Below are positions 51,685 to 63,972 of a DNA stretch of 64,000 bases, one piece after another (within the stretch, counting starts at the first letter, position 1; the number at the start of each line of letters is the position of its first letter). The position numbers were made by a program, and so were the translations under genes. The stretch is from an uncultured Verrucomicrobiae bacterium (lineage in GTDB: Bacteria; Verrucomicrobiota; Verrucomicrobiia; Chthoniobacterales; JACTMZ01). Location: positions 130,658 to 194,657 of the forward strand of contig CAVZLI010000001.1 in assembly GCA_963776165.1 (NCBI GenBank), read 5' to 3'. Under the pieces are notes generated by a model. The model was not told the origin of the DNA. It did not search any database and saw nothing but the letters and a program-made list of their open reading frames with translations.

Positions 51685-53070
51685 TCAGAAATGCGAGGGC
51701 TTCCGCTGGAGGAAGCGGCCACGGCCAACGGTGCCGACGAACTTTCCGTCGCGGACGGCGACCTCGCCGCGGACGGTGACGATCGATGGGCGTCCCTCGA
51801 TTTCCCAGCCCTCGAAGGCATTGTAGTCGACGTTTTGGGTCTGGGTCTTGACCGAGAGTTTGCCGCGGTAGGACGGATCGTAGATGACAAGGTCGGCATC
51901 GGCCCCGGGTTGGATCACGCCCTTGCGCGGGTAGAGGTCGAAGATTTTCGCGGCATTGGTGCTGGCCACGGCGACCAACTGCTGGAGGGTCAGGCGCCCT
52001 TTTTTCACGCCGTGCGTGTAGAGCAGATTGATGCGGTCCTCGATGGACGGGATGCCATTGGGGATCTTGGTGAAGTCGTCTTGGCCCATCCGCTTCTTCT
52101 GTTCCTCGAAGTCGAACGGTGCGTGGTCCGTGCCGACGGTGTTGACCAAGCCGCTGGCCAGTCCGTCCCAGAGAATTTGCTGGTTCGAAACATCGCGCAG
52201 GGGCGGGGACATGACGAACTTGGCACCCTCGAAGTCGGGCTTCTCGGCGTAGGTTTTGTCGAGGACAAGGTATTGGATGAGGGTCTCGACGAACACATTC
52301 ACCCCGCGCTCACGCGCGTTGATCGCCTCGCGCAGGGCCTCGAGGCAGCTGAGGTGGACGATGTAAGTGTGCGCGCCGGTCAGGGCGGCGAAGGACATCA
52401 AATGGTGCACGCCCTCGGCTTCGACGTAAGGCGGCCGGCTGTCATGGTGGGCGTCGGGTCCGGTGCGGCCGGCGGCGAGGAGTTCTTTTTGCAACTGCGC
52501 GACGAGCGTTTCGTTCTCGCAGTGGGCCGTGACGATGACGCCGAGTTCTTTGGCCAGTTTGAGGGTTTCCCAAAGTTCGGTGTCATCGACCCCGAACGCG
52601 CCCTTGTAAGCGAGGAAGACTTTGAAGCTGCCCACGCCCTGTTTGACGATTTCGCGCAGTTGTTTGGCCGAGTCCGCGTCGAAGCGGGTCACCCCCATGT
52701 GGAAAGTGTAATCGCAGCAGGCCTTGCCCTCGGCCTGGGCCTGCCAAGTGGCAAAGCCCTCGGCCGGCGCCATGTCGCGCGAAGGACAGACCATTTCGAA
52801 AATCGTCGTGGTGCCCCCGACAAGTGCGGCTTTGGTGCCGGTCTCGTAATTGTCCTTCGAAACCGTGCCCATGAAGGGCAGGAAAATATGCGTGTGCGGG
52901 TCGATGAAGCCGGGGAAGACATGTTTGCCGGCAGCGTCGATCACTTCGGCGCCCGCGGGCGGGGTGATGTTCTGGTCGATCCGGTTGATGGTATCGCCTT
53001 CGCACAGGATGTCGGCGGTGTAGCGCGTGTCGGCGTTGATGATGTCGGCATTTTTAATGAGAAGTGACAT
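51685..53070 (-). CDS. dihydropyrimidinase / D-hydantoinase
   Basis: ATG at 53070 gives MSLLIKNADIIN...PGFIDPHTHI. The carbamylated-Lys region reads GSFKVFLAYKG. GTDHAPF is present. Confidence 0.85.
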   Translation of the reverse strand: MSLLIKNADIINADTRYTADILCEGDTINRIDQNITPPAGAEVIDAAGKHVFPGFIDPHTHIFLPFMGTVSKDNYETGTKAALVGGTTTIFEMVCPSRDMAPAEGFATWQAQAEGKACCDYTFHMGVTRFDADSAKQLREIVKQGVGSFKVFLAYKGAFGVDDTELWETLKLAKELGVIVTAHCENETLVAQLQKELLAAGRTGPDAHHDSRPPYVEAEGVHHLMSFAALTGAHTYIVHLSCLEALREAINARERGVNVFVETLIQYLVLDKTYAEKPDFEGAKFVMSPPLRDVSNQQILWDGLASGLVNTVGTDHAPFDFEEQKKRMGQDDFTKIPNGIPSIEDRINLLYTHGVKKGRLTLQQLVAVASTNAAKIFDLYPRKGVIQPGADADLVIYDPSYRGKLSVKTQTQNVDYNAFEGWEIEGRPSIVTVRGEVAVRDGKFVGTVGRGRFLQRKPSHF

Positions 53071-53506
53071 GGGACTTGTGACGTGTGACGAGTTGGGTGT
53101 TGTTACTTGAGCGTGGTAAGCTTGCGGCGGAGACCGTTGAGCATGCGGCGGAGTTCGTCGACGAGACCTGTGGCATTGGCGGTTTCTTGCGAATTTAGAA
53201 GTTTCAAGTCCTGACACAGGGTCAGTTGGGTGTCGAGTTCGGCCACCGATCCCTCGGCGTGGGAGATGAACTGGATGAACTCACCGGTGGTGTGGCGCGC
53301 CTGGCCTTCGGCGATGTTCGAAGGGACTGATACAGCGGCGCGGCGCATCTGCGACACAAGGCCGAACTTTTCATCGGCCGGCAACTTCCTTGTGAGAAGG
53401 TAAATCTCACGCGCGAGGGAGATGCCTTTTTGCCAAACAACGAGATCACGATATCCCTGCGCTTTCGGATTGTCGTGCTTGTCACTCGTCACAAGTCACA
53501 TGTCAC
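53064..53506 (-). other. IVS-like cassette: four-helix-bundle gene bracketed by 26-bp inverted arrays of tandem heptamers
   Basis: The left array at 53064-53089 reads GTGACAT GGGACTT GTGACGT GTGAC. The right array at 53481-53506 reads GTCACTC GTCACAA GTCACAT GTCAC. They are complementary at 24 of 26 positions by my alignment. The arrays contain the dihydropyrimidinase ATG and the four-helix-bundle GTG. Confidence 0.6.
53103..53492 (-). CDS. four-helix-bundle protein (23S rRNA intervening-sequence protein / Avd family)
   Basis: 129-aa ORF with YRDLVVWQKGISLAREIYLLT...GLVSQMRRAAVSVPSNIAEGQAR...HAEGSVAELDTQL, the family signature. Confidence 0.85.
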   Translation of the reverse strand: MTSDKHDNPKAQGYRDLVVWQKGISLAREIYLLTRKLPADEKFGLVSQMRRAAVSVPSNIAEGQARHTTGEFIQFISHAEGSVAELDTQLTLCQDLKLLNSQETANATGLVDELRRMLNGLRRKLTTLK

Positions 53507-53512
53507 AAGGTT

Positions 53513-55006
53513 CTATTTGTCCGACCAAATAGAACCCTCCCCGTAGCTGAACCAGCGGGTGGTGGTGACTTTTTGCTGGGTGTAGAAGGCGACGCTTTCG
53601 CGGCCTTGGATGTGGAGGTCGCCGAAGAACGATTGGTGCCATCCGCTGAAGGGGAAGAAGGCCATGGGGGCGGGGACGCCGATGTTCACGCCGACCATGC
53701 CGGCTTGGATGCGGTGACGGAATTCGCGGGCCGCTTTGCCGCTTCGCGTGAAAATGGCGGCGCCGTTGCCGTAGATGGAGCGGTTGGCCAGTTCGATGGC
53801 GGAGTCGAGGTCTTCCATGCGGACGACGTTGAGCACGGGGCCGAAAACTTCTTCTTTCATGGTGATCATGTCGGGCAGGACGTGATCGAGGACGGTGGGG
53901 CCGACGTAGAAACCTTTCGGGGCGGACTCCACTTTGGTGTGGCGTCCGTCGGTGAGGGGTTTGGCGCCTTGGTCGGCGGCTTGGGTGATGAGGTTGCAGA
54001 CGCGGTCGGCGTGTTCGCGGGTGATGACGGCGCCCATCTGGGCCTGCGGGTCGCGGTCGGTCGGGCCGACGCGGATTTTGGCAACGACATCGACCAGCGC
54101 GGGCAGGACGGTGTGGGCCGCATCGCCGATGGCCACGGCGGTGGAGCTGGCCATGCAGCGCTCGCCGGCGCAGCCGAAGGCGGATTCGACGAGGCCGGTG
54201 GCGGAATTGGTCACGTCCGCATCGGGCATGATAAGAACGAAATTTTTCGCGCCCCCGGCGGCTTGCACGCGTTTGCCGTGAGCCGTGCCCGTTTCGTAGA
54301 TGTATTTGGCGATCGGGGTCGAGCCGACGAAGGAGACGGCTTTGATCGTCGGGTGCTTGAGGATGGCATCGACGGCTTCGCGTCCGCCGTGAACGAGGTT
54401 GAGCACCCCGGGAGGAAGCCCGGCCTTTTCCGCGAGCTGCGCGATGCGGATCGAGGTGAGCGGGACTTTCTCGCTGGGTTTGAGGACAAAGGTGTTTCCG
54501 CAGGCGATAGCCATGGGCCACATCCAGAGGGGGACCATGGCGGGGAAATTGAATGGCGTGATGCCGGCGACCACGCCGAGAGGTTGGCGGATGGAATCGC
54601 AATCGATGCCGCGCGCCACATTTTCCAGCGACTCGCCCATGAGGAGCGAGGGCGCGCCGCAGGCGAATTCGATGTTTTCCAGCCCGCGTCGCACATCGCC
54701 GCGTGCCTCGGCCAGCGTCTTGCCGTGCTCGCGGGTCACGCTTTGGGCCAGTTCCTCGAAGTGGTCTTCGAGCATGACCTTGAGCTTCATCAAAATGCGG
54801 GCGCGTTCGACGGGCGGGGTTTCCATCCACTTGGGGAATGCCTCGGCGGCGGCGCGCACGGCTTGATCGACGGTGTCGGCGCCACAGAGCGGGGTCTCGG
54901 CGATGACTTCGCCGACGGACGGATTATGGACTGGGGTGGTGGGGACGCCGGACACATTGGTCCATTCGCCGCCGATGAAAAGCGGGACAGGGAGGATTTT
55001 GCTCAT
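53513..55006 (-). CDS. mmsA: CoA-acylating methylmalonate-semialdehyde dehydrogenase
   Basis: 497-aa ORF with aldehyde dehydrogenase motifs (FPAMVPLWMWP, the catalytic Cys in GERCMA) and an MmsA-type N-terminus LFIGGEW. Confidence 0.88.
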   Translation of the reverse strand: MSKILPVPLFIGGEWTNVSGVPTTPVHNPSVGEVIAETPLCGADTVDQAVRAAAEAFPKWMETPPVERARILMKLKVMLEDHFEELAQSVTREHGKTLAEARGDVRRGLENIEFACGAPSLLMGESLENVARGIDCDSIRQPLGVVAGITPFNFPAMVPLWMWPMAIACGNTFVLKPSEKVPLTSIRIAQLAEKAGLPPGVLNLVHGGREAVDAILKHPTIKAVSFVGSTPIAKYIYETGTAHGKRVQAAGGAKNFVLIMPDADVTNSATGLVESAFGCAGERCMASSTAVAIGDAAHTVLPALVDVVAKIRVGPTDRDPQAQMGAVITREHADRVCNLITQAADQGAKPLTDGRHTKVESAPKGFYVGPTVLDHVLPDMITMKEEVFGPVLNVVRMEDLDSAIELANRSIYGNGAAIFTRSGKAAREFRHRIQAGMVGVNIGVPAPMAFFPFSGWHQSFFGDLHIQGRESVAFYTQQKVTTTRWFSYGEGSIWSDK

Positions 55007-55079: not shown

Positions 55080-55153
55080 TGGCTGGCCCGCATGGACTCG
55101 AACCATGAATAACGGCTCCAAAGGCCGCTGTGTTACCATTACACCACAGGCCA
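55080..55153 (-). tRNA. tRNA-Gln (anticodon UUG), CCA encoded
   Basis: Hand-folded cloverleaf. The acceptor is TGGCCTG/CGGGCCA, the D arm GTGT-AATGGTA-ACAC. The anticodon arm is GCGGC-CTTTGGA-GCCGT with anticodon TTG. The T arm is CATGG-TTCGAGT-CCATG, followed by G-CCA. Confidence 0.85.
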
Positions 55154-55204: not shown

Positions 55205-55272
55205 GATTTCAGATTTGAAATTTAAGATTTCAGGAGGCGGGAGGATTGGAGGTTTGAAATTTCAGATTCCAG
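55205..55272. repeat. two adjacent arrays of RATTTSA tandem heptamers (no associated gene)
   Basis: The first array reads GATTTCA GATTTGA AATTTAA GATTTCA. After a 9-nt spacer the second reads GATTGGA GGTTTGA AATTTCA GATTCCA. It is strongly AT-rich in a high-GC context. Confidence 0.8.
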
Positions 55273-55281
55273 AAGAAAGAC

Positions 55282-55309
55282 AAAAAGCCCGGGGAATTGC
55301 TTCCCCGGG
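55282..55309 (-). terminator. rho-independent terminator downstream of nrdJ
   Basis: On the minus strand the hairpin CCCGGGG-aagcaatt-CCCCGGG is followed by CTTTTTGTCTTTCTT. It starts about 35 nt after the nrdJ stop. Confidence 0.65.
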
Positions 55310-59488: not shown

Positions 59489-60448
59489 TCAGGCGATGAT
59501 TTCGCTCACGACGGCGAACATGTCACGGGCGGCGACGTAGCCGAAGTGGCCCTGCGGGCTGGTCAGGAGGCGGGCGCCGTCCCAAGCGTGGGCCAGGGCC
59601 TCGACGCGGTCGGGTGGAGCGATGCGGTCGTAGGCGCCGATGGCGAGGATGATGCGGTCGGGGGAGGTTTGTGGTTTGACGTGGAGGGGGGAACTGAGGT
59701 GGGCGTGGCGCGCGGTCAGGGTGCGGTCGATGCCATTACGATGAAGGAGGCGGCGGATGGTCGCGCCGGCGGGGCTTTGCCAGATGGCGTGCTCGACATC
59801 GGCGATGGGTTGGAGGAGCGCGATGAACGAGATGTCGTGCTCCAGCGAAGCGAGCAGAGCACCGGTCCACGCACCGTAGCTGGTGCCATAAATGCCGAAT
59901 TCGCGGCAACCTTTGGCGCGGAGCCACGCCATAAGCTGGCGCATCTCGCTCACGCCTTGACGGAGTCCTTCGCTGTTGCGGATCAGGTCGGCGGTGACGG
60001 CCAGCTCGCCGTTGAGGTAGCCGGGCGGACGGCGGGCGTAGTGGAAGGGAAGATGGAGGAAGGCGGCGTTCCAGCCGAGGGCGTTGAATTTGGCGGCGAG
60101 GCGGCGGTAGCCGAGGTCGTTGACCGACATGAGGGCGTGGAGGATGAGGACGGTCGGGGCGGACCAACCGCGGTCGCAGGGTTGCAGCCAAGCGGAGGCG
60201 CGGTCGTTGTGGTCGAGTCCGCTGGCGTGCGGAGTGGGCCAGACAAGGTGGCCGGGGGATTCCTCGACGGGCTCGAGGGGCGGGGCGGCGTAGAAGTTGT
60301 GGCGGTCGAGGGATTCGCAGACGGCGAGGTAGGTTTCGAGGTCGTTGCGTGTGGTGGCGTGGTGGCGGTGGCGCCACTGCGCCAAATTGAGCAGGGCGCA
60401 GGTCGAGGCGTCGGTCACGCGGGCCCAGGGACGGCGGAGGAATGTCAT
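59489..60448 (-). CDS. alpha/beta hydrolase
   Basis: 319-aa ORF with the nucleophile elbow GTSYG and a C-terminal His region (PQGHFG). Confidence 0.6.
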
Positions 60449-60469
60449 AGCGGGGAGGCGGAAGGCAGC

Positions 60470-60495
60470 GGCCCGCTGGGCCAGCGGGCCCTACC
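60470..60495. repeat. REP-like palindromic unit
   Basis: GGCCCGCTGG-G-CCAGCGGGCC followed by CTACC. It belongs to the same family as the units at 15193-15270. Confidence 0.7.
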
Positions 60496-60545
60496 GGGTC
60501 GTGACGGGCGGGACGCCTGTGCCCCTTGGGAGTGCAGATGGAGAT

Positions 60546-61244
60546 TCATTCGCGGCCTTTGCGCTTTTGCGGGGTTTGCGGGAGGCAGTCGGCGGGGATT
60601 TTTTCTTCGCGCACGGTGTGCTGGTAGAGTTCGCGGATGCGGTTGCCTAGGAGTTGCTCGAAGGCGTCGCGGGCGGCGGCTTTGTCGCCGGTGGAGGCGG
60701 GCGGGGCCAGCGGGGCGCCGAAGACGATCCAGACCTTGGAGTGGCGCCATGGCAGCCAGCGTCCGGGATTGTAGAGAGCGTCGGTGCCGATAACGGCGCA
60801 GGGGATGACGGGGGCCTGGGTCATCTGCGCGAGAGCGGCCACGCCGGGTTTGAGCGGAGCGCCTTCGAGGACGGAGGTGGGGCCGGCGCGGAGTCCGCCT
60901 TCGGGGAAGACGCCGACCATGCGTCCGCGCTTGAGGCGTTCGATGGCGGTGCGCACGGCGGCGTAGTCCATTTTGCCGCGGCCCACGGGGAATGAGCCGA
61001 TCCAGCGGAGCACGGCGGCAAGGACGGGATTTTCGAAAAGTTCCTCCATGGCCATCCAATCGACCTGGCGGTCGGCGCTGATGCCGAGGAGGGGTGGGTC
61101 GAAATGGCTGATGTGGTTGGGCGCGAGGATGGCGGGTCCGGTGTGCGGGACATTGGGTAGTCCGATGACGCGGCGTCGCGTGAAGGGGGCAAGGACGATG
61201 CGGAAGAAGTGCGCGCCGAGGCTGTAGCCGAAAGCGGAGAGCAT
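60546..61244 (-). CDS. plsC: 1-acyl-sn-glycerol-3-phosphate acyltransferase
   Basis: 232-aa ORF with the HX4D motif NHISHFD and FPEGGLR. Confidence 0.8.
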
Positions 61245-61256
61245 GCGGCCGGCTTT

Positions 61257-62016
61257 TTACGATGCAGAGCGGAAAAAGCCGCGCTGTTTTTCCGAAATGG
61301 GCAGACCGAGCTTTTCCATGACCAGCAACATGTCCTCCCAGACTTTGCGCTTCTCGGTGTTGGAGCCGTTGCGGAGGAGGTAGGACGGATGATACGTGGG
61401 GAGCAGGGGAATGTTTGCGAATTCGTGCCAGCGGCCGCGCATGGCGGACATGGATTGGTCGGCGCCGGTGAGCCCGAGCCATGGCGGTTTTGCCGAGGGC
61501 GACGAGGACGCGCGGTTGGATGATGGCGATCTGTTCGCGCAGGTAGGGGAGGCAGCGTTGCATTTCGAGCGGCGTGGGGGGGCGGTTGCCGGGCGTGTTC
61601 GGCGGCATGTCGGGGCGGCATTTGAGGACGTTGGCGATGTAGACGTCGTCGCGGGTCAGGCCCATGGCGTTGATGATTTTGGTGAGGAGTTCGCCGGCGC
61701 GTCCGACGAAGGGCTCGCCTTGCTTGTCCTCATCCGCTCCGGGGGCCTCGCCGACGAACATGAGGTCGGCGTTGGGGTTGCCGGTGCCGAAGACGGTTTG
61801 CGTGCGAGACGCGGCGAGGTGCTCGCATTTGCGGCAAGCGCGGACTGTCTCGTTCAGCGCGGCGAGCTGCGCTGAACGAGAGATTTCAGATTTCAGATTT
61901 GAGATTTCAGATAATTGAGGTGAGGGCGTTTTGGCCAGGCGCGAGAGGGATTCGCGCGTGACGTCGGTGCGGGTGCGGCCGAGGAGGGACGCGGCGGGTG
62001 CGGAGGGATTGCTCAA
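61257..62016 (-). pseudogene. family-4 uracil-DNA glycosylase with one frameshift near 61476 and a heptamer-repeat-encoded N-terminal segment
   Basis: The frame of ORF 60445..62016 gives ...CRKCEHL...[22 protein letters not shown]...[11 protein letters not shown]. The sequence continues in ORF 61257..61451 and just upstream of it ([19 protein letters not shown]...[10 protein letters not shown]). Confidence 0.75.
61882..61916. repeat. RATTTSA heptamer array (5 units)
   Basis: GATTTCA GATTTCA GATTTGA GATTTCA GATAATT. It lies inside the UDG N-terminal reading frame, where it encodes [11 protein letters not shown]. Confidence 0.85.
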
Positions 62017-62621
62017 GGAGAGCGGTGGCTTCGTGGAGAGAGGGCATGATACGATATTTCAGATTGGAAATTTGAGATTTCAGAAGGCGGGGGTGTCTCG
62101 CTTTCGCTCGGCTCAGAGGAGCGTTTTGGAGGTTTTTTCGCCGGGTGTCCATCGGGGAGGGCGGCGTTGAGTTTTTCGATAAAGGCGTTGGCTTTTTTGC
62201 GTTGTTCGTGGCGGTTGCGTTCGGCGTTGCTGAGGTGGCGTTGGCCTTTGATGTCGGAATTTTGCAGGGACTCGGCCCATTTGCGGAGCTGTCTCGAGCA
62301 GGATTCCGCCTGCAATTTCAGATTTGAAATCTGTGATTTGAGATCTTTGAGCGCGGGGCGGCGCTCGAAGTAACTGAGCATGGAACGGACTTCGCCGGCG
62401 GAGCCTCGGGCGATGTAGAGGAAGTTTAGCAGCTCGTTGGTCGTCCCACGTTCGAAACCTTCGGCGATGTTGTTGGAGACGGAGAGGGAGGCGCGGTCGA
62501 GTTGGTCGCGTTTCGACCACGTGATGCGGTCTTTGGCGGCCAAAATGAAATCCTCGCAGCCTTCGGCCAACGCAATAGCCGCGTTCCAGACCGGTAAATC
62601 TTCGAAGCGTTGGTAGGTCAT
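62013..62621 (-). CDS. four-helix-bundle protein (23S rRNA IVS protein / Avd family) with a repeat-derived C-terminal extension
   Basis: 202-aa ORF with [16 protein letters not shown]...[17 protein letters not shown]...[13 protein letters not shown]. Family members are usually about 120-130 aa. The tail reads through two heptamer arrays to a TGA that overlaps the UDG ORF start. Confidence 0.8.
62053..62085. repeat. RATTTSA heptamer array
   Basis: GATATTTCA GATTGGA AATTTGA GATTTCA GAA. It lies in the C-terminal tail of the four-helix-bundle ORF, where it encodes [11 protein letters not shown]. Confidence 0.8.
62314..62350. repeat. degenerate RATTTSA heptamer array inside the four-helix-bundle ORF
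   Basis: AATTTCA GATTTGA AATCTGT GATTTGA GATCTTT, encoding [13 protein letters not shown]. Confidence 0.7.
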
Positions 62622-62630
62622 GGTTTCGGG

Positions 62631-62660
62631 GATTTAAGATTTGAAATTTGAAATTTCAAA
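62631..62660. repeat. RATTTSA heptamer array between the cca stop and the four-helix-bundle start
   Basis: GATTTAA GATTTGA AATTTGA AATTTCA AA. It contains the 14-bp palindrome TTTGAAATTTCAAA and overlaps the cca stop codon. Confidence 0.85.
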
Positions 62661-63972
62661 CGGGGTAGTGCGCTTTAATCCAAGCGAGGGCTTCTTGGGT
62701 GGTGGTTAGTGTTCCTTCGAGTTGGGCGGTTTGGATGGATTCGAGGACTTGGCCGAAGTGGGGGCCGGGTTTCCAGCCGAGGGCCATGAGGTCGTGGCCG
62801 GTGAGGAGTGGCGGCGGGATGAGGGGTTCGTTGGCGAATTCTTCGGCTTTGGTTTTGAGAAAATCGTAATTGTCGAGAGCTCCGTGGCTGCTTTGGCAGT
62901 CGACGCGGTGGAGTTCGAGTTCCTCGTCGAAACCCTCGCGGGCCATGAAGCGTTTCAATTTGGCGGTGCGCATGTTCTGCACGTCTTTGAAGACCATGTG
63001 CTGCCGGACGGCTTCGGCGACGCGGTCGATGTCGTGGCGCGAGAAGCGGAGGCGCTCCATGAGTTTTTCTGTCATGGCCGCGCCGACGCGATCGTGTCCG
63101 CTGAAACGGATACGGTCTTCGTCCGCATGGTAACGGAAGGTGGGTGGCTTGCCGATGTCGTGGAAAAGCACGGAGAGCGCGAGGTTGGCGGGAGCGTCGG
63201 GCGGAAGGAGTTCCAGCATGGCGCGGGTGTGGACGAAGACGTCCCCCTCGGGATGGAATTGGGCCGGCTGTTCGCAGCCTTTGAGAGCTTCGATCTCGGG
63301 AAGGATTTGCTTGAGGAGTCCGCTTTGGTCGAGCAGGTCGAAGCCGAGGACGCGGCTCGGGTGGGCGAGGATTTTGACCAGCTCCTCGCGTATGCGCTCG
63401 GCGCTCACCGCGTGAATGTCCGTGGCGTGGGCGCGGAGAGCTGCCCATGTGGCGGGATCGATGTCATAGCCGAACCGCGCGGCGAAGCGGACAGCGCGGA
63501 GGAGGCGGAGTTTGTCTTCGCGAAATCGGGCCACAGGATCGCCGATGGCGCGGAGGGTCTGTGATTTCAGGTCCTCCCGGCCGCCGACGAAATCGATGAA
63601 TTGGTCCGCCACCGGATCGTGGAACATGCCATTGATGGTGAAATCGCGTCGCGCTGCGTCTTCTTCGGGCGTGGAAAAAGTGACCATCTCGGGACGGCGT
63701 CCGTCGATGTATTCGTGGTCCGAGCGGAAGGTCGCGACCTCGAAGGCGCGGCCGTGCTCCATGACGAGGATGACGCCAAAGTGGGCGCCGACGGCTTGGG
63801 TGTGCGGGAAAAGTTTCCGCACCTCCTCGGGTTTGGCCGAGGTGGCGATGTCGTAGTCGTGCGGATCAAGGCCGAGCAGTTCGTCGCGCACGCAACCGCC
63901 GGCGAAATAGGCCGTGTGTCCGGCCTCTTGCAGGCGGCGGGCAATGTCGGTGGCGGCGGATTTCGGGTCCAT
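62656..63972 (-). CDS. cca: CCA-adding tRNA nucleotidyltransferase with HD domain
   Basis: 438-aa ORF with AYFAGGCVRDELLG, DYDIAT, RRDFTINGM and the HD region LFHDIGKP. Confidence 0.85.
   Translation of the reverse strand: MDPKSAATDIARRLQEAGHTAYFAGGCVRDELLGLDPHDYDIATSAKPEEVRKLFPHTQAVGAHFGVILVMEHGRAFEVATFRSDHEYIDGRRPEMVTFSTPEEDAARRDFTINGMFHDPVADQFIDFVGGREDLKSQTLRAIGDPVARFREDKLRLLRAVRFAARFGYDIDPATWAALRAHATDIHAVSAERIREELVKILAHPSRVLGFDLLDQSGLLKQILPEIEALKGCEQPAQFHPEGDVFVHTRAMLELLPPDAPANLALSVLFHDIGKPPTFRYHADEDRIRFSGHDRVGAAMTEKLMERLRFSRHDIDRVAEAVRQHMVFKDVQNMRTAKLKRFMAREGFDEELELHRVDCQSSHGALDNYDFLKTKAEEFANEPLIPPPLLTGHDLMALGWKPGPHFGQVLESIQTAQLEGTLTTTQEALAWIKAHYPV

Follow-up and report, generated by a model that had tools for sequence, protein, structure and literature searches.

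Inverted heptamer arrays around a PF05635 four-helix-bundle gene at operon junctions: a candidate intervening-sequence-type cassette in mRNA

Introduction

Why does a gene for a small four-helix-bundle protein stand between two genes of a catabolic operon, with an array of heptamers at its start and the inverted complement of that array at its end? The protein belongs to PF05635/TIGR02436, a very large family known mainly as the open reading frame of some 23S rRNA intervening sequences (IVSs) and as a relative of Avd, from diversity-generating retroelements (DGRs); to our knowledge, the family has no known function. Protein-coding IVSs are found in Leptospira, Coxiella burnetii and Brucella and include the Xanthomonas-type S23p ORFs; they lie inside the 23S rRNA gene, in helix 25 or 45. 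A sequence-only reading of the 64-kb stretch of DNA analysed here (the window) had proposed that the two arrays pair in a polycistronic RNA, loop out the gene and bury two start codons, much as IVSs are built in rRNA. The element proves to be one copy of a cassette that is widespread at operon junctions in many phyla, not a local oddity.

Architecture of the locus

The cassette and its host genes lie on the minus strand. Upstream is mmsA (53513..55006, minus strand), encoding a CoA-acylating methylmalonate-semialdehyde dehydrogenase (TIGR01722, 650 bits; cutoff 448), and downstream is the dihydropyrimidinase gene (51685..53070, minus strand; TIGR02033, 554 bits; cutoff 393), followed further downstream by an NCS1 transporter, which exceeds the TIGR00800 cutoff, and by a class-III aminotransferase matching Pfam Aminotran_3. 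Between the TAG stop codon of mmsA (53515-53513) and the 5' array (53481..53506, minus strand) there are 6 nt. This array comprises the units GTGACAT, GTGACTT, GTGACGA and a final GTGAC, with four GTGAC cores. The cassette gene (53103..53492, minus strand; 129 aa) has its GTG start codon (53492) inside unit three of the 5' array and ends with a TAA at 53105-53103. The 3' array (53064..53089, minus strand) is the inverted complement of the first, with the units GTCACAC, GTCACAA, GTCCCAT and GTCAC. Within its third unit lies the dihydropyrimidinase ATG (53070-53068; the last heptamer is also given as the site), and the gene opens ATG TCA C, as opposed to ATG GCT in relatives with an empty site.

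The two inverted arrays of four heptamers are real, as the sequence-only reading had it: 24 of the 26 positions of one arm are complementary to the other, and the match can be lengthened to 29 nt at 90%, the arms then being 385 nt apart. At up to two mismatches, the pattern GTGACNNGTGACNNGTGAC occurs in the 64 kb only at the two array sites, with 4 overlapping matches where 0.1 are expected; none of 100 shuffles reached 4. An Rfam scan of the 64-kb window returned one tRNA only: the arrays are covered by no family, and the element, with a protein gene on either side, is not located in a 23S rRNA. The window holds a second copy of the cassette, built of AAATTTC units, and no second GTGAC array pair was found in it. 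The 5' array supplies TGA and GTG in each of the three frames; the provision of stop codons in all frames was nevertheless rejected as a general array function, being true for GTGAC-type units only.

The protein matches the entire PF05635 profile (positions 1-106 of 106; 130.3 bits, cutoff 33.8) as well as TIGR02436 (122.6 bits, cutoff 24). It resembles XCC0516 (PDB 2GSC; E 1e-21, residues 14-124) and is, judged by this similarity, a homologue of that pentameric protein. Avd is likewise a homologous four-helix-bundle pentamer, with weak matches to the Avd profile NF033474 (33 bits, cutoff 80) and to PF22296. Identity with the DGR accessory protein Avd itself was rejected on the subcutoff score and on finding neither a reverse transcriptase nor template/variable repeats nearby. 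A tblastn search against phage genomes yielded no relative of the protein, and an exact-sequence look-up gave no record of it.

In the minimum free energy fold, the arrays are predicted to pair with each other, looping out the whole gene as had been proposed. The arm duplex (RNA) has a predicted energy of -41.2 kcal/mol, compared with a mean of -12.5 and a best value of -21.9 for shuffled arms, and pair probabilities in the arms are ~1.0 in both 491-nt and 801-nt contexts. Because a DNA cruciform would not be extruded with a loop as long as 385 nt, the pairing more plausibly occurs in RNA. A scan based on the sigma-70 consensus, which may not apply to this phylum, detected no promoter-like or terminator-like site inside the cassette, in agreement with the view that the gene has no independent promoter or terminator. 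On the minus strand, no terminator-like site was found in 53064-53506, the sole hit touching this interval being a plus-strand one (53027-53051). On the cassette's strand, the closest sites are one within mmsA (54577-54555) and one, the strongest, past the RNR gene (55312-55285). An intrinsic terminator, consisting of a short GC-rich hairpin and a U-tract, was rejected, as no such site is present on the cassette strand.

Occurrence in other genomes

The expectation that other family members would also be flanked by inverted arrays was borne out. Among relatives at metagenome-derived loci, the best inverted repeat joining the start region to the stop region reaches a score of 14 or more in 69 of 81 cases, compared with 11 of 890 (1.2%) other ORFs from the same loci, at least 3 of which are further PF05635 genes; ~15% of the relatives show no clear arrays. 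The 69 array-flanked copies represent 34 independent contexts. Arm self-identity is 0.77 at a lag of 7 and 0.13-0.33 at other lags, and with a median of 3.9 units per arm, both the period of 7 and the number of about four units are constant. In total, 132 heptamer arrays were observed versus 0 in shuffled controls. In a search from the repeats, 55 of the 56 inverted array pairs with loops of 330-620 nt had a four-helix-bundle gene in the loop. Gene-less hairpins occur too, and their unit is that of the nearby cassette.

Complementarity is specific to the arms of each element. The best match of each 5' arm is its own 3' arm (23.1 versus 7.9 for other partners), which ranks first in 27 of 35 contexts, a set made up of 29 of the 34 contexts and six added loci. 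The same holds within the GTGA class (24.2 versus 15.6), and unit order is mirrored between the arms in a unit-permutation test, a result partly inflated by non-array flanks. These two tests replaced covariation tools because MAFFT would lose the register of periodic, non-homologous arms. Orientation is sense only: the upstream gene is co-directional at 67 of 68 loci against a background of 75% (P = 6e-8). The stop-stem-start geometry is equally tight, with medians of 3 nt from the upstream stop codon to the stem and 6.5 nt from the stem to the next start codon.

Conservation reaches across phyla, with protein identities of 60-70%, and the unit class follows the protein clade (RGNGAYN in clade A, GGGAATC in the Xanthomonas group, AARYTCS in clade B and AAATTTC in the second window copy). 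The XCC0516 orthologues of Xanthomonas and Dyella lie between accB and accC within GGGAATC arrays. Array-flanked copies are also present in Calothrix, Anabaena (cas6|cas4) and Riemerella (Bacteroidota), and further cassettes occupy leuC|leuD-type, adaptor|ABC ATPase and cmr2|cmr3 junctions.

Seventeen divergent loci were checked with Rfam, and none lies in rRNA. A 23S rRNA IVS of Azospirillum, however, contains a family member within inverted heptamer arrays of CAGAGGA/CGGAGGA units. The Coxiella IVS has tandem heptamers (two to three copies of GACAGAT and a degenerate one) in a 28-bp stem that is cleaved by RNase III (PMC4990558). The likeness to 23S rRNA IVSs noticed in the sequence-only reading is thus homology, beyond analogy. 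In both settings, a protein of the same family is encoded in the loop, in sense, a terminal stem of ~26-28 bp is built of heptamers, and there is no promoter of its own. They differ in that the host RNA of the window cassette is a polycistronic mRNA and its stem abuts stop and start codons, whereas the rRNA IVS stem abuts helix 45. The window protein, moreover, is under strong purifying selection, whereas Coxiella S23p is judged by its authors to be decaying (PMC4990558).

In Xanthomonas, convergent GGGAATC arrays, mostly of four units, have been described (Rehm et al., 2015, PMC4692102). There are ~186 of them genome-wide; the G-rich strand is found within 50 bp past stop codons and the C-rich strand within 50 bp ahead of start codons, and the repeats are transcribed, often as inverted pairs (PMC4692102). 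They share with the window cassette the tandem heptamers, the number of about four units, the stop/start placement and the inverted pairing. However, that work took a G-quadruplex (G4) view and connected no gene to the repeats (PMC4692102), and the GTGAC units of the window cannot form G4. The Xanthomonas XCC0516 orthologue sits inside one GGGAATC pair; most pairs must be gene-less, because they far outnumber the gene. Tandem heptanucleotide repeats of cyanobacteria are cited in PMC4692102 for Calothrix PCC 7601. The supposed novelty of the arrangement therefore stands in part: the Coxiella IVS heptamers and the convergent Xanthomonas arrays are already published, but no paper tying PF05635/TIGR02436 generally to flanking heptamer arrays was found in the full-text literature open without subscription.

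The mmsA|dihydropyrimidinase junction in relatives

The empty sites looked for at this junction exist. In close relatives, the place of the cassette is empty, carries a scar or is taken by a toxin-antitoxin pair, and presence and absence are polymorphic among relatives whose mmsA genes are 95-97% identical. Comparison of occupied and empty junctions revealed no target-site duplication. Orthologues at the same junction keep flanks of the array type, not unrelated ones, and cassettes show long-term synteny within lineages. The cassette protein is under purifying selection (dN/dS 0.10-0.12 at dS 0.9-1.3 against orthologues), and so are the arrays, which differ from those of orthologues at ~2 of 26 nt and are ~8-fold more conserved than synonymous sites. 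No convincing clean compensatory pair was found among close orthologues, most of which have a mismatch at the innermost spacer. Over 1,938 pairs, arm mismatches are G.U in 54 and A.C in 57 cases, with no wobble excess.

The proposed burial of both start codons describes the window stem correctly, but it does not extend to the family as a whole. Burial of the cassette start is clade-specific: in Opitutales orthologues, the ATG is ~25 nt inside the loop, outside the stem. All orthologues have the dihydropyrimidinase ATG in the last unit or at most 10 nt from it; what holds across the family is only that the downstream start is near the stem, at a median of 6.5 nt.

Interpretation of the arrays

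The best explanation, which we adopt with slightly better than even confidence, is that of an IVS-type cassette with an mRNA as its host, in which pairing of the arrays yields a stem and loops out the gene. Such a cassette, without a promoter of its own, would be inserted in sense exactly between the mmsA stop and the dihydropyrimidinase start, and transcription would be driven by the promoter of the host operon. In the transcript, the arrays would form a 26-bp stem, rejoining the mmsA stop with the dihydropyrimidinase start. By homology with the Coxiella rRNA IVS, this stem is a putative substrate of RNase III. Cleavage, or mere looping-out, could make the insertion tolerable in tightly coupled operons while the cassette gene is still expressed. 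RNase III cleavage is on record only for rRNA copies, in other species. Several observations count against the stem: there is no G.U signature and no clean compensatory pair among close orthologues, the arrays of the second window copy pair weakly (-8.3 kcal/mol), some relatives have no clear arrays, as noted above, and at one locus (L022) the gene is flanked by a hairpin on each side instead of being enclosed by one.

A sequence-specific factor may also read the arrays, the obvious candidate being the cassette protein, a presumed pentamer. The unit cores are conserved beyond the needs of pairing and the unit class tracks the clade, which argues for sequence-specific recognition rather than a generic stem. 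Taken further, the arrays could above all be binding sites of such a factor, most likely the four-helix-bundle pentamer, with the stem secondary; the protein would then act like a maturase or a RAYT master, binding its own flanks and the gene-less hairpins of the same unit class. We regard this as a possibility of clearly lower probability, and only tentatively propose PF05635 pentamers as putative readers of their own arrays of about four units, serving same-class gene-less hairpins in trans. Consistent with it, binding of nucleic acid and of a reverse transcriptase is established for the homologue Avd, the core pentamers of the two arms persist from phylum to phylum, the spacer position being variable but free of wobble bias, and the excess conservation of the arrays over synonymous sites, the clade-specific unit and the unit shared by hairpins and nearby cassettes all fit. 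So do the unit number held near four (in our data and in Rehm et al., 2015) and the many Xanthomonas GGGAATC arrays, with the XCC0516 orthologue inside one pair. However, the arms differ in sequence as single strands, so that a single RNA-binding site would be unable to recognise both; four cores have no obvious fit to a pentamer; element-specific complementarity would not be required; and co-inheritance alone could pair unit with clade.

RAYT/REPIN systems offer a parallel, in which a gene present once and inherited vertically is under purifying selection and flanked by inverted short repeats, with dispersed gene-less hairpins in intergenic regions and a repeat class that goes with the gene clade. 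In contrast to the cassette gene, however, the flanked RAYT gene encodes an HUH/Y1 transposase, and REP sequences are palindromes rather than tandem heptamer arrays. Membership was rejected, as the flanked gene here belongs to PF05635 and the gene-plus-dispersed-repeat layout alone is alike. If true, array reading would place PF05635 in the role of a maturase- or RAYT-like master gene that serves an entire class of repeats in bacteria. A single mechanism would then account for the long-noted excess of heptamers (Xanthomonas GGGAATC and the tandem heptanucleotide repeats of cyanobacteria, known as STRR) and for protein-coding rRNA IVSs, and the same reading would explain harmless placement between tightly coupled genes (accB|accC, leuC|leuD).

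A reading at the DNA level is unlikely: the arrays would be the terminal inverted repeats of a non-autonomous element, transposon-like or integron-cassette-like, whose mobility depends on an enzyme from another locus, and any RNA stem would be incidental. The polymorphism, scars and toxin-antitoxin replacement at the junction, the 34 different contexts, the cross-phylum protein identities, suggestive of horizontal spread, and the missing G.U bias would suit such an element. Against it stand the absence of a target-site duplication at occupied versus empty sites and of a transposase or integrase beside the cassettes of the window and the Xanthomonadales loci, the sense orientation (67/68) within a few nucleotides of stop and start boundaries, the long-term synteny, and the occurrence of this type of element in rRNA, with processing at the RNA level. 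A TIR transposon or MITE was rejected for want of a target-site duplication and of a second GTGAC array pair in the window, and an integron cassette because the cassettes are single, at many operon junctions, with tandem heptamers on both sides. Adjoining a plasmid copy in Calothrix is a phage-integrase-family gene, yet with no tandem cassette array or attC.

Still harder to sustain is an operon-specific switch, in which the stem would hide both start codons and its opening or cutting would control pyrimidine catabolism. Both starts are indeed within a very stable stem here, and the dihydropyrimidinase ATG keeps its place in or next to the last unit in all orthologues. However, the same design recurs at unrelated junctions (accB|accC, leuC|leuD-type, adaptor|ABC ATPase, cas6|cas4, cmr2|cmr3) and in rRNA, the junction is empty in close relatives that have the same operon, and the Opitutales cassette start lies outside the stem. 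The idea of a regulatory module special to the catabolic operon was accordingly abandoned, the cassette being found at many junctions in many phyla. That the repeats are functionless by-products of replication slippage, or G4 elements of G-rich units, is scarcely credible: heptamer repeats are generally over-represented in bacteria and GGGAATC forms G4 in vitro (PMC4692102), but shuffled controls contain no arrays, the arrays are specific to the family, have mirrored arms and a fixed length and are far more conserved than synonymous sites, and G4 fails as a general explanation because most unit classes (GTGAC, AAATTTC, GGTTYAA, AAGCTCC) have no G-runs and are unable to form it.

The cassette joins three literatures, those on rRNA IVSs, on over-represented heptamer repeats and on PF05635/TIGR02436. 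The family gains a testable context as part of a defined genetic element instead of an isolated curiosity, and the IVS design follows its members through rRNA, catabolic operons, essential operons (accBC) and CRISPR-Cas operons. This raises questions about the tolerance of insertions between translationally coupled genes, mRNA processing by RNase III, repeat binding and cassette movement. In practice, neutral sites for insertions into operons could be designed on the model of the stop-stem-start geometry. By analogy only, the short distances from stop to stem and from stem to next start are like those of the shunt structure of CaMV 35S RNA, where ribosome shunting belongs to a eukaryotic scanning system.

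Architecture of the element in the window

On the window's minus strand, a four-helix-bundle gene (PF05635 and TIGR02436 by profile match) separates mmsA (TIGR01722) from the dihydropyrimidinase gene (TIGR02033), 3′ of which lie NCS1 transporter and class-III aminotransferase genes. Six nucleotides past the mmsA stop codon (TAG, 53515-53513) there is an array of heptamers, GTGACAT GTGACTT GTGACGA GTGAC (53506-53481), whose third unit contains the GTG start (53492) of the 129-codon cassette ORF. The ORF ends with TAA at 53105-53103, and 13 nt further on the 3′ array, GTCACAC GTCACAA GTCCCAT GTCAC (53089-53064), holds the dihydropyrimidinase ATG (53070-53068) within its third unit. The closest relatives are freshwater Chthoniobacterales MAGs. 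With four GTGAC units at 53481-53506, and since 7 mod 3 = 1, every reading frame receives a stop (TGA) and a start (GTG); as a general property of the family this was rejected, as it is true for GTGAC-type units only.

The sequence-only reading had claimed inverted heptamer arrays that form a long stem looping out the gene. The arrays are real: 24 of their 26 positions are complementary (a repeat finder stretches the match to 29 nt at 90%), and their pattern has no further site in the 64 kb (0.1 matches expected by chance). They also pair in the minimum-energy fold of the element, with an arm duplex of -41.2 kcal/mol versus -12.5 when the arms are shuffled; in both 491-nt and 801-nt contexts the pair probabilities are ~1.0. 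An independent promoter and terminator, which that reading had regarded as incompatible with its proposal, were not found inside the cassette, where sigma-70-like promoters and intrinsic terminators were sought, although bacteria of this phylum may not follow the sigma-70 consensus.

Inverted arrays across the gene family

Eighty genomic loci encoding relatives (49-84% identical) were fetched from Verrucomicrobiota, Acidobacteriota and several other phyla, and each was scored by the best ungapped inverted repeat between start and stop regions. With the window counted, 69 of 81 loci score at least 14, so that other four-helix-bundle genes do carry such arrays, versus 1.2% (11) of the 890 remaining ORFs that reach 100 aa in these loci, whose mean score is 7.7. 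Several of these 11 are small ORFs with other flanking heptamers, and three are divergent PF05635 genes by Pfam. Arm self-identity is 77% at lag 7 versus 13-33% at lags 3-12, and the arms have a median of 3.9 units on both sides, nearly all having 3-5. The unit itself varies by lineage (GTGACNN, GAGACNN, GGGACNN, GTGGACA, GGGGTCA, AGAGGCT, AGGTGGA and others).

The 69 array-flanked loci represent 34 independent genomic contexts, 29 of which, together with six added loci, made up a set of 35 contexts for comparing partners. Complementarity of the 5′ arm is 23.1 with its own 3′ arm versus 7.9 with those of other loci, the own arm ranking first in 27 of the 35 contexts; within the GTGA class the values are 24.2 and 15.6. 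If the units of one arm are permuted, 56 of 61 loci score lower, a count partly inflated by flanks without arrays. Each arm is therefore a true mirror image of its partner, and complementarity has been maintained while the unit sequence changed.

Period-7 arrays number 132 in the 1.08 Mb examined versus none in shuffled sequence. Of 56 inverted pairs whose loops measure 330-620 nt, 55 hold a four-helix-bundle gene, and 22 pairs with shorter loops are hairpins without a gene that share the unit class of a nearby cassette, such as the GTGAC hairpin immediately 5′ of mmsA (loci L008 and L016) or the GGGAATC hairpin 3′ of accC (L167). Two acidobacterial loci (L022, 2600-7200; L033, 380-4700) are dense in GTGAC, GAAACTN, AGGTGTC and AGGAGCC units, with nested and adjacent pairs. 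In L022 the four-helix-bundle gene has a complete GTGAC hairpin on either side, and AGGTGTC arrays bracket hemE (URO-D); in L033 ~2.2 kb is enclosed by an outer GTGAC and an inner GAAACT pair.

Cassettes lie in sense. In 67 of 68 loci (33 of 34 contexts) the gene upstream points the same way, versus 75% of the other adjacent gene pairs within the same loci (P = 6e-8), and the gene downstream does so in 54 of 63. The median distance from the upstream stop to the first heptamer is 3 nt (interquartile range -5 to 11), and that from the last heptamer to the next start is 6.5 nt. Host junctions often fall between partner genes: accB and accC, the large and small subunits of an aconitase-family enzyme (leuC-leuD type), an HlyD-type adaptor and an ABC ATPase, cas6 and cas4, or cmr2 and cmr3; one is directly 5′ of a CpaB gene.

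History of the mmsA-dihydropyrimidinase junction

At least 14 genome loci (window counted) have the cassette at this junction. They range from close relatives, whose mmsA is 91-93% identical, to Opitutales, where identity is 62-65% for mmsA, 66-76% for dihydropyrimidinase and 59-72% for the cassette protein. In comparisons with five orthologues, dN/dS of the cassette gene is 0.10-0.12 (dS 0.94-1.31), which shows the protein to be functional; across this divergence just ~2 positions differ in the 26-nt arrays. Burial of both start codons in the stem, as first proposed, stands for the window, and the dihydropyrimidinase ATG lies in the last unit or at most 10 nt from it in all orthologues. However, the in-stem GTG is peculiar to the window's clade, the cassette ATG of the Opitutales orthologues being ~25 nt inside the loop.

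Other states of the junction came from a metagenome search with dihydropyrimidinase. Empty sites in relatives, envisaged by the sequence-only reading, exist, with stop-start gaps of 2-16 nt; among them L085 and L088, with mmsA 95-97% identical to that of the window, have 5 nt from stop to ATG and neither scar nor duplication. Two loci (L082, L158) retain parts of both arrays in an 80-nt scar, and in L086 the cassette gene is frameshifted. In L081, L083, L087 and L094 (mmsA 91-99% identical) the place of the four-helix-bundle gene is taken by a toxin of the ParE family (PF05016) with a small antitoxin-like ORF on the other strand; L153 and L154 have gene-less hairpins of other unit classes. The junction is a hotspot for small cassettes, where loss and decay are ongoing despite the low dN/dS of intact copies. 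These states may fit a single ancient insertion that was lost cleanly several times, or several insertions into this junction. A run of ACTGAAA/ACTGAAC heptamers adjoins the toxin-antitoxin pair, which is degraded in L091 and L109.

Dihydropyrimidinase starts ATG TCA C in occupied, scarred and most toxin-antitoxin loci (L087, with ATG CCC, is the exception among the latter) and ATG GCT in empty loci. ATGTCAC resembles the complementary unit of GTGAC, and mmsA ends resembling GTGAC units (AGT GAC AAG TGA or ..AAG TGA C, stop codon included) occur in many relatives (L081, L094, L133, L007 and L040); in L133 the two arrays, back to back, form a plain hairpin exactly at the mmsA stop. Such likenesses may reflect target mimicry or flanking codons adapted to the stem.

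The same design in other bacteria

The sole solved structure of the family, XCC0516 of Xanthomonas campestris (2GSC, E 1e-21), has been described as a homopentameric ring (Lin 2006, cited in PMC4990558). In Xanthomonas, X. sacchari and Dyella (L161-L170) the orthologous gene separates accB from accC, reads in the direction of both, and is enclosed by inverted GGGAATC arrays that begin 4-6 nt past the accB stop and finish at the accC ATG. The operon into which it is wedged is essential, and the arrangement is found across Xanthomonadales. Rehm et al. 2015 (PMC4692102) described these arrays as 'convergent GGGAATC repeats', which mostly have four units, are transcribed, number ~70 pairs per genome and place the G-strand up to 50 bp past a stop codon and the C-strand up to 50 bp ahead of a start; they were read as G-quadruplex elements, the enclosed gene being unmentioned (PMC4692102).

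Plasmid copies lie 3′ of an integrase gene in Calothrix (unit AGGGTGT), 3′ of an Fe-S assembly gene in Riemerella (GGTTYAA), at the cas6/cas4 junction of a type I-D system in Anabaena sp. 90 (L173; AGGTGAC) and between cas10/cmr2 and cmr3 of a type III-B system in Picosynechococcus (L174), where units have 8 rather than 7 nt. Both CRISPR-Cas copies are co-directional, with gaps of ~35 nt. The Stanieria plasmid copy (CAGAGGG) is in no operon, its upstream gene being on the other strand. Nostoc (adjoining an IS) and Gemmatirosa copies have a one-sided array only.

An Azospirillum lipoferum replicon carries a cassette in sense within a 23S rRNA gene (Rfam LSU, 2,537 bits), ~1,150 nt into the rRNA and with inverted CAGAGGA/CGGAGGA heptamers on both sides. 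The Coxiella burnetii 23S rRNA intervening sequence (IVS) has a 28-bp terminal stem, with 2-3 GACAGAT heptamers and one degenerate unit ahead of the start of its four-helix-bundle protein, S23p; RNase III cuts the stem internally in vitro, and RACE-mapped ends agree (PMC4990558). The likeness to rRNA IVSs drawn in the sequence-only reading is thus borne out: the window element is of one kind with the protein-coding rRNA IVS, but its host RNA is an mRNA.

Cassette proteins are 60-70% identical across phyla, which suggests horizontal spread between them. Those of Acidobacteriota (L009, L012, L013, L017 and others) are 63-70% identical to the window protein, as similar as its same-junction orthologues of other Verrucomicrobial orders (59-72%).

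Already known are rRNA IVSs with S23p ORFs and their excision by RNase III, the Coxiella heptamers, Avd homology, and the over-represented heptamer repeats and convergent GGGAATC pairs of Xanthomonas. A full-text literature search, covering papers outside subscription, found neither the IVS design of PF05635 genes beyond rRNA nor their sense placement at operon stop-start junctions, the link between unit class and protein clade, or the enclosure of XCC0516 by the Xanthomonas repeats.

Function of the arrays

On balance, the element is somewhat likely to be an IVS-type cassette whose arrays would pair as a stem in the host transcript and so make the insertion tolerable; by homology with rRNA IVSs, RNase III would cleave this stem. 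An RNA-level stem is favoured by the sense-only orientation with no room for a promoter, by the 385-nt loop, which exceeds what cruciform extrusion permits, and by homology with RNase III-processed rRNA IVSs. A plain stem does not fit the arm mismatches, which show no G.U excess (54 versus 57 A.C), nor unit cores that are conserved and a unit class that goes with the protein clade: clade A has purine-rich RGNGAYN units, the Xanthomonas group has GGGAATC, a second clade without BLAST similarity to clade A has AARYTCS, and the window's second copy has AAATTTC. These features argue for a sequence-specific factor reading the arrays, with the cassette protein as the natural candidate; as main rival or complement of the transcript stem, this is a tentative but serious possibility. 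That the arrays are DNA-level transposon ends is unlikely; no target-site duplication was seen across the occupied, scarred and empty states of the junction. Slightly more doubtful still is a regulatory switch peculiar to the mmsA-dihydropyrimidinase operon, given cassettes at other junctions, and it is hardly credible that these mirror-image repeats are functionless or a G4 by-product.

Other arrays in the window

A second family member (TIGR02436 at 65 bits) occupies 62013-62656 on the minus strand. Its product (ATG 62621, stop 62013) has 202 aa and a long basic tail; upstream is a CCA-adding/poly(A) polymerase-family gene (62656-63972) and downstream a UDG-family ORF (60445-62016). The flanking arrays, four AAATTTC units (62656-62629) and four of TGAAATC type (62082-62055), pair weakly (-8.3 kcal/mol), and an additional array (62350-62321) is translated within the ORF; this copy looks degraded or remodelled. 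Gene-less arrays of the AAATYTN/GAAATCT class occur at 55205-55290, as two direct runs 5′ of mmsA between the terminator of a ribonucleotide reductase gene and a tRNA (55083-55153), and at 61881-61912, as a run of 4.6 units that would be translated in the 5′ end of the UDG-family ORF.
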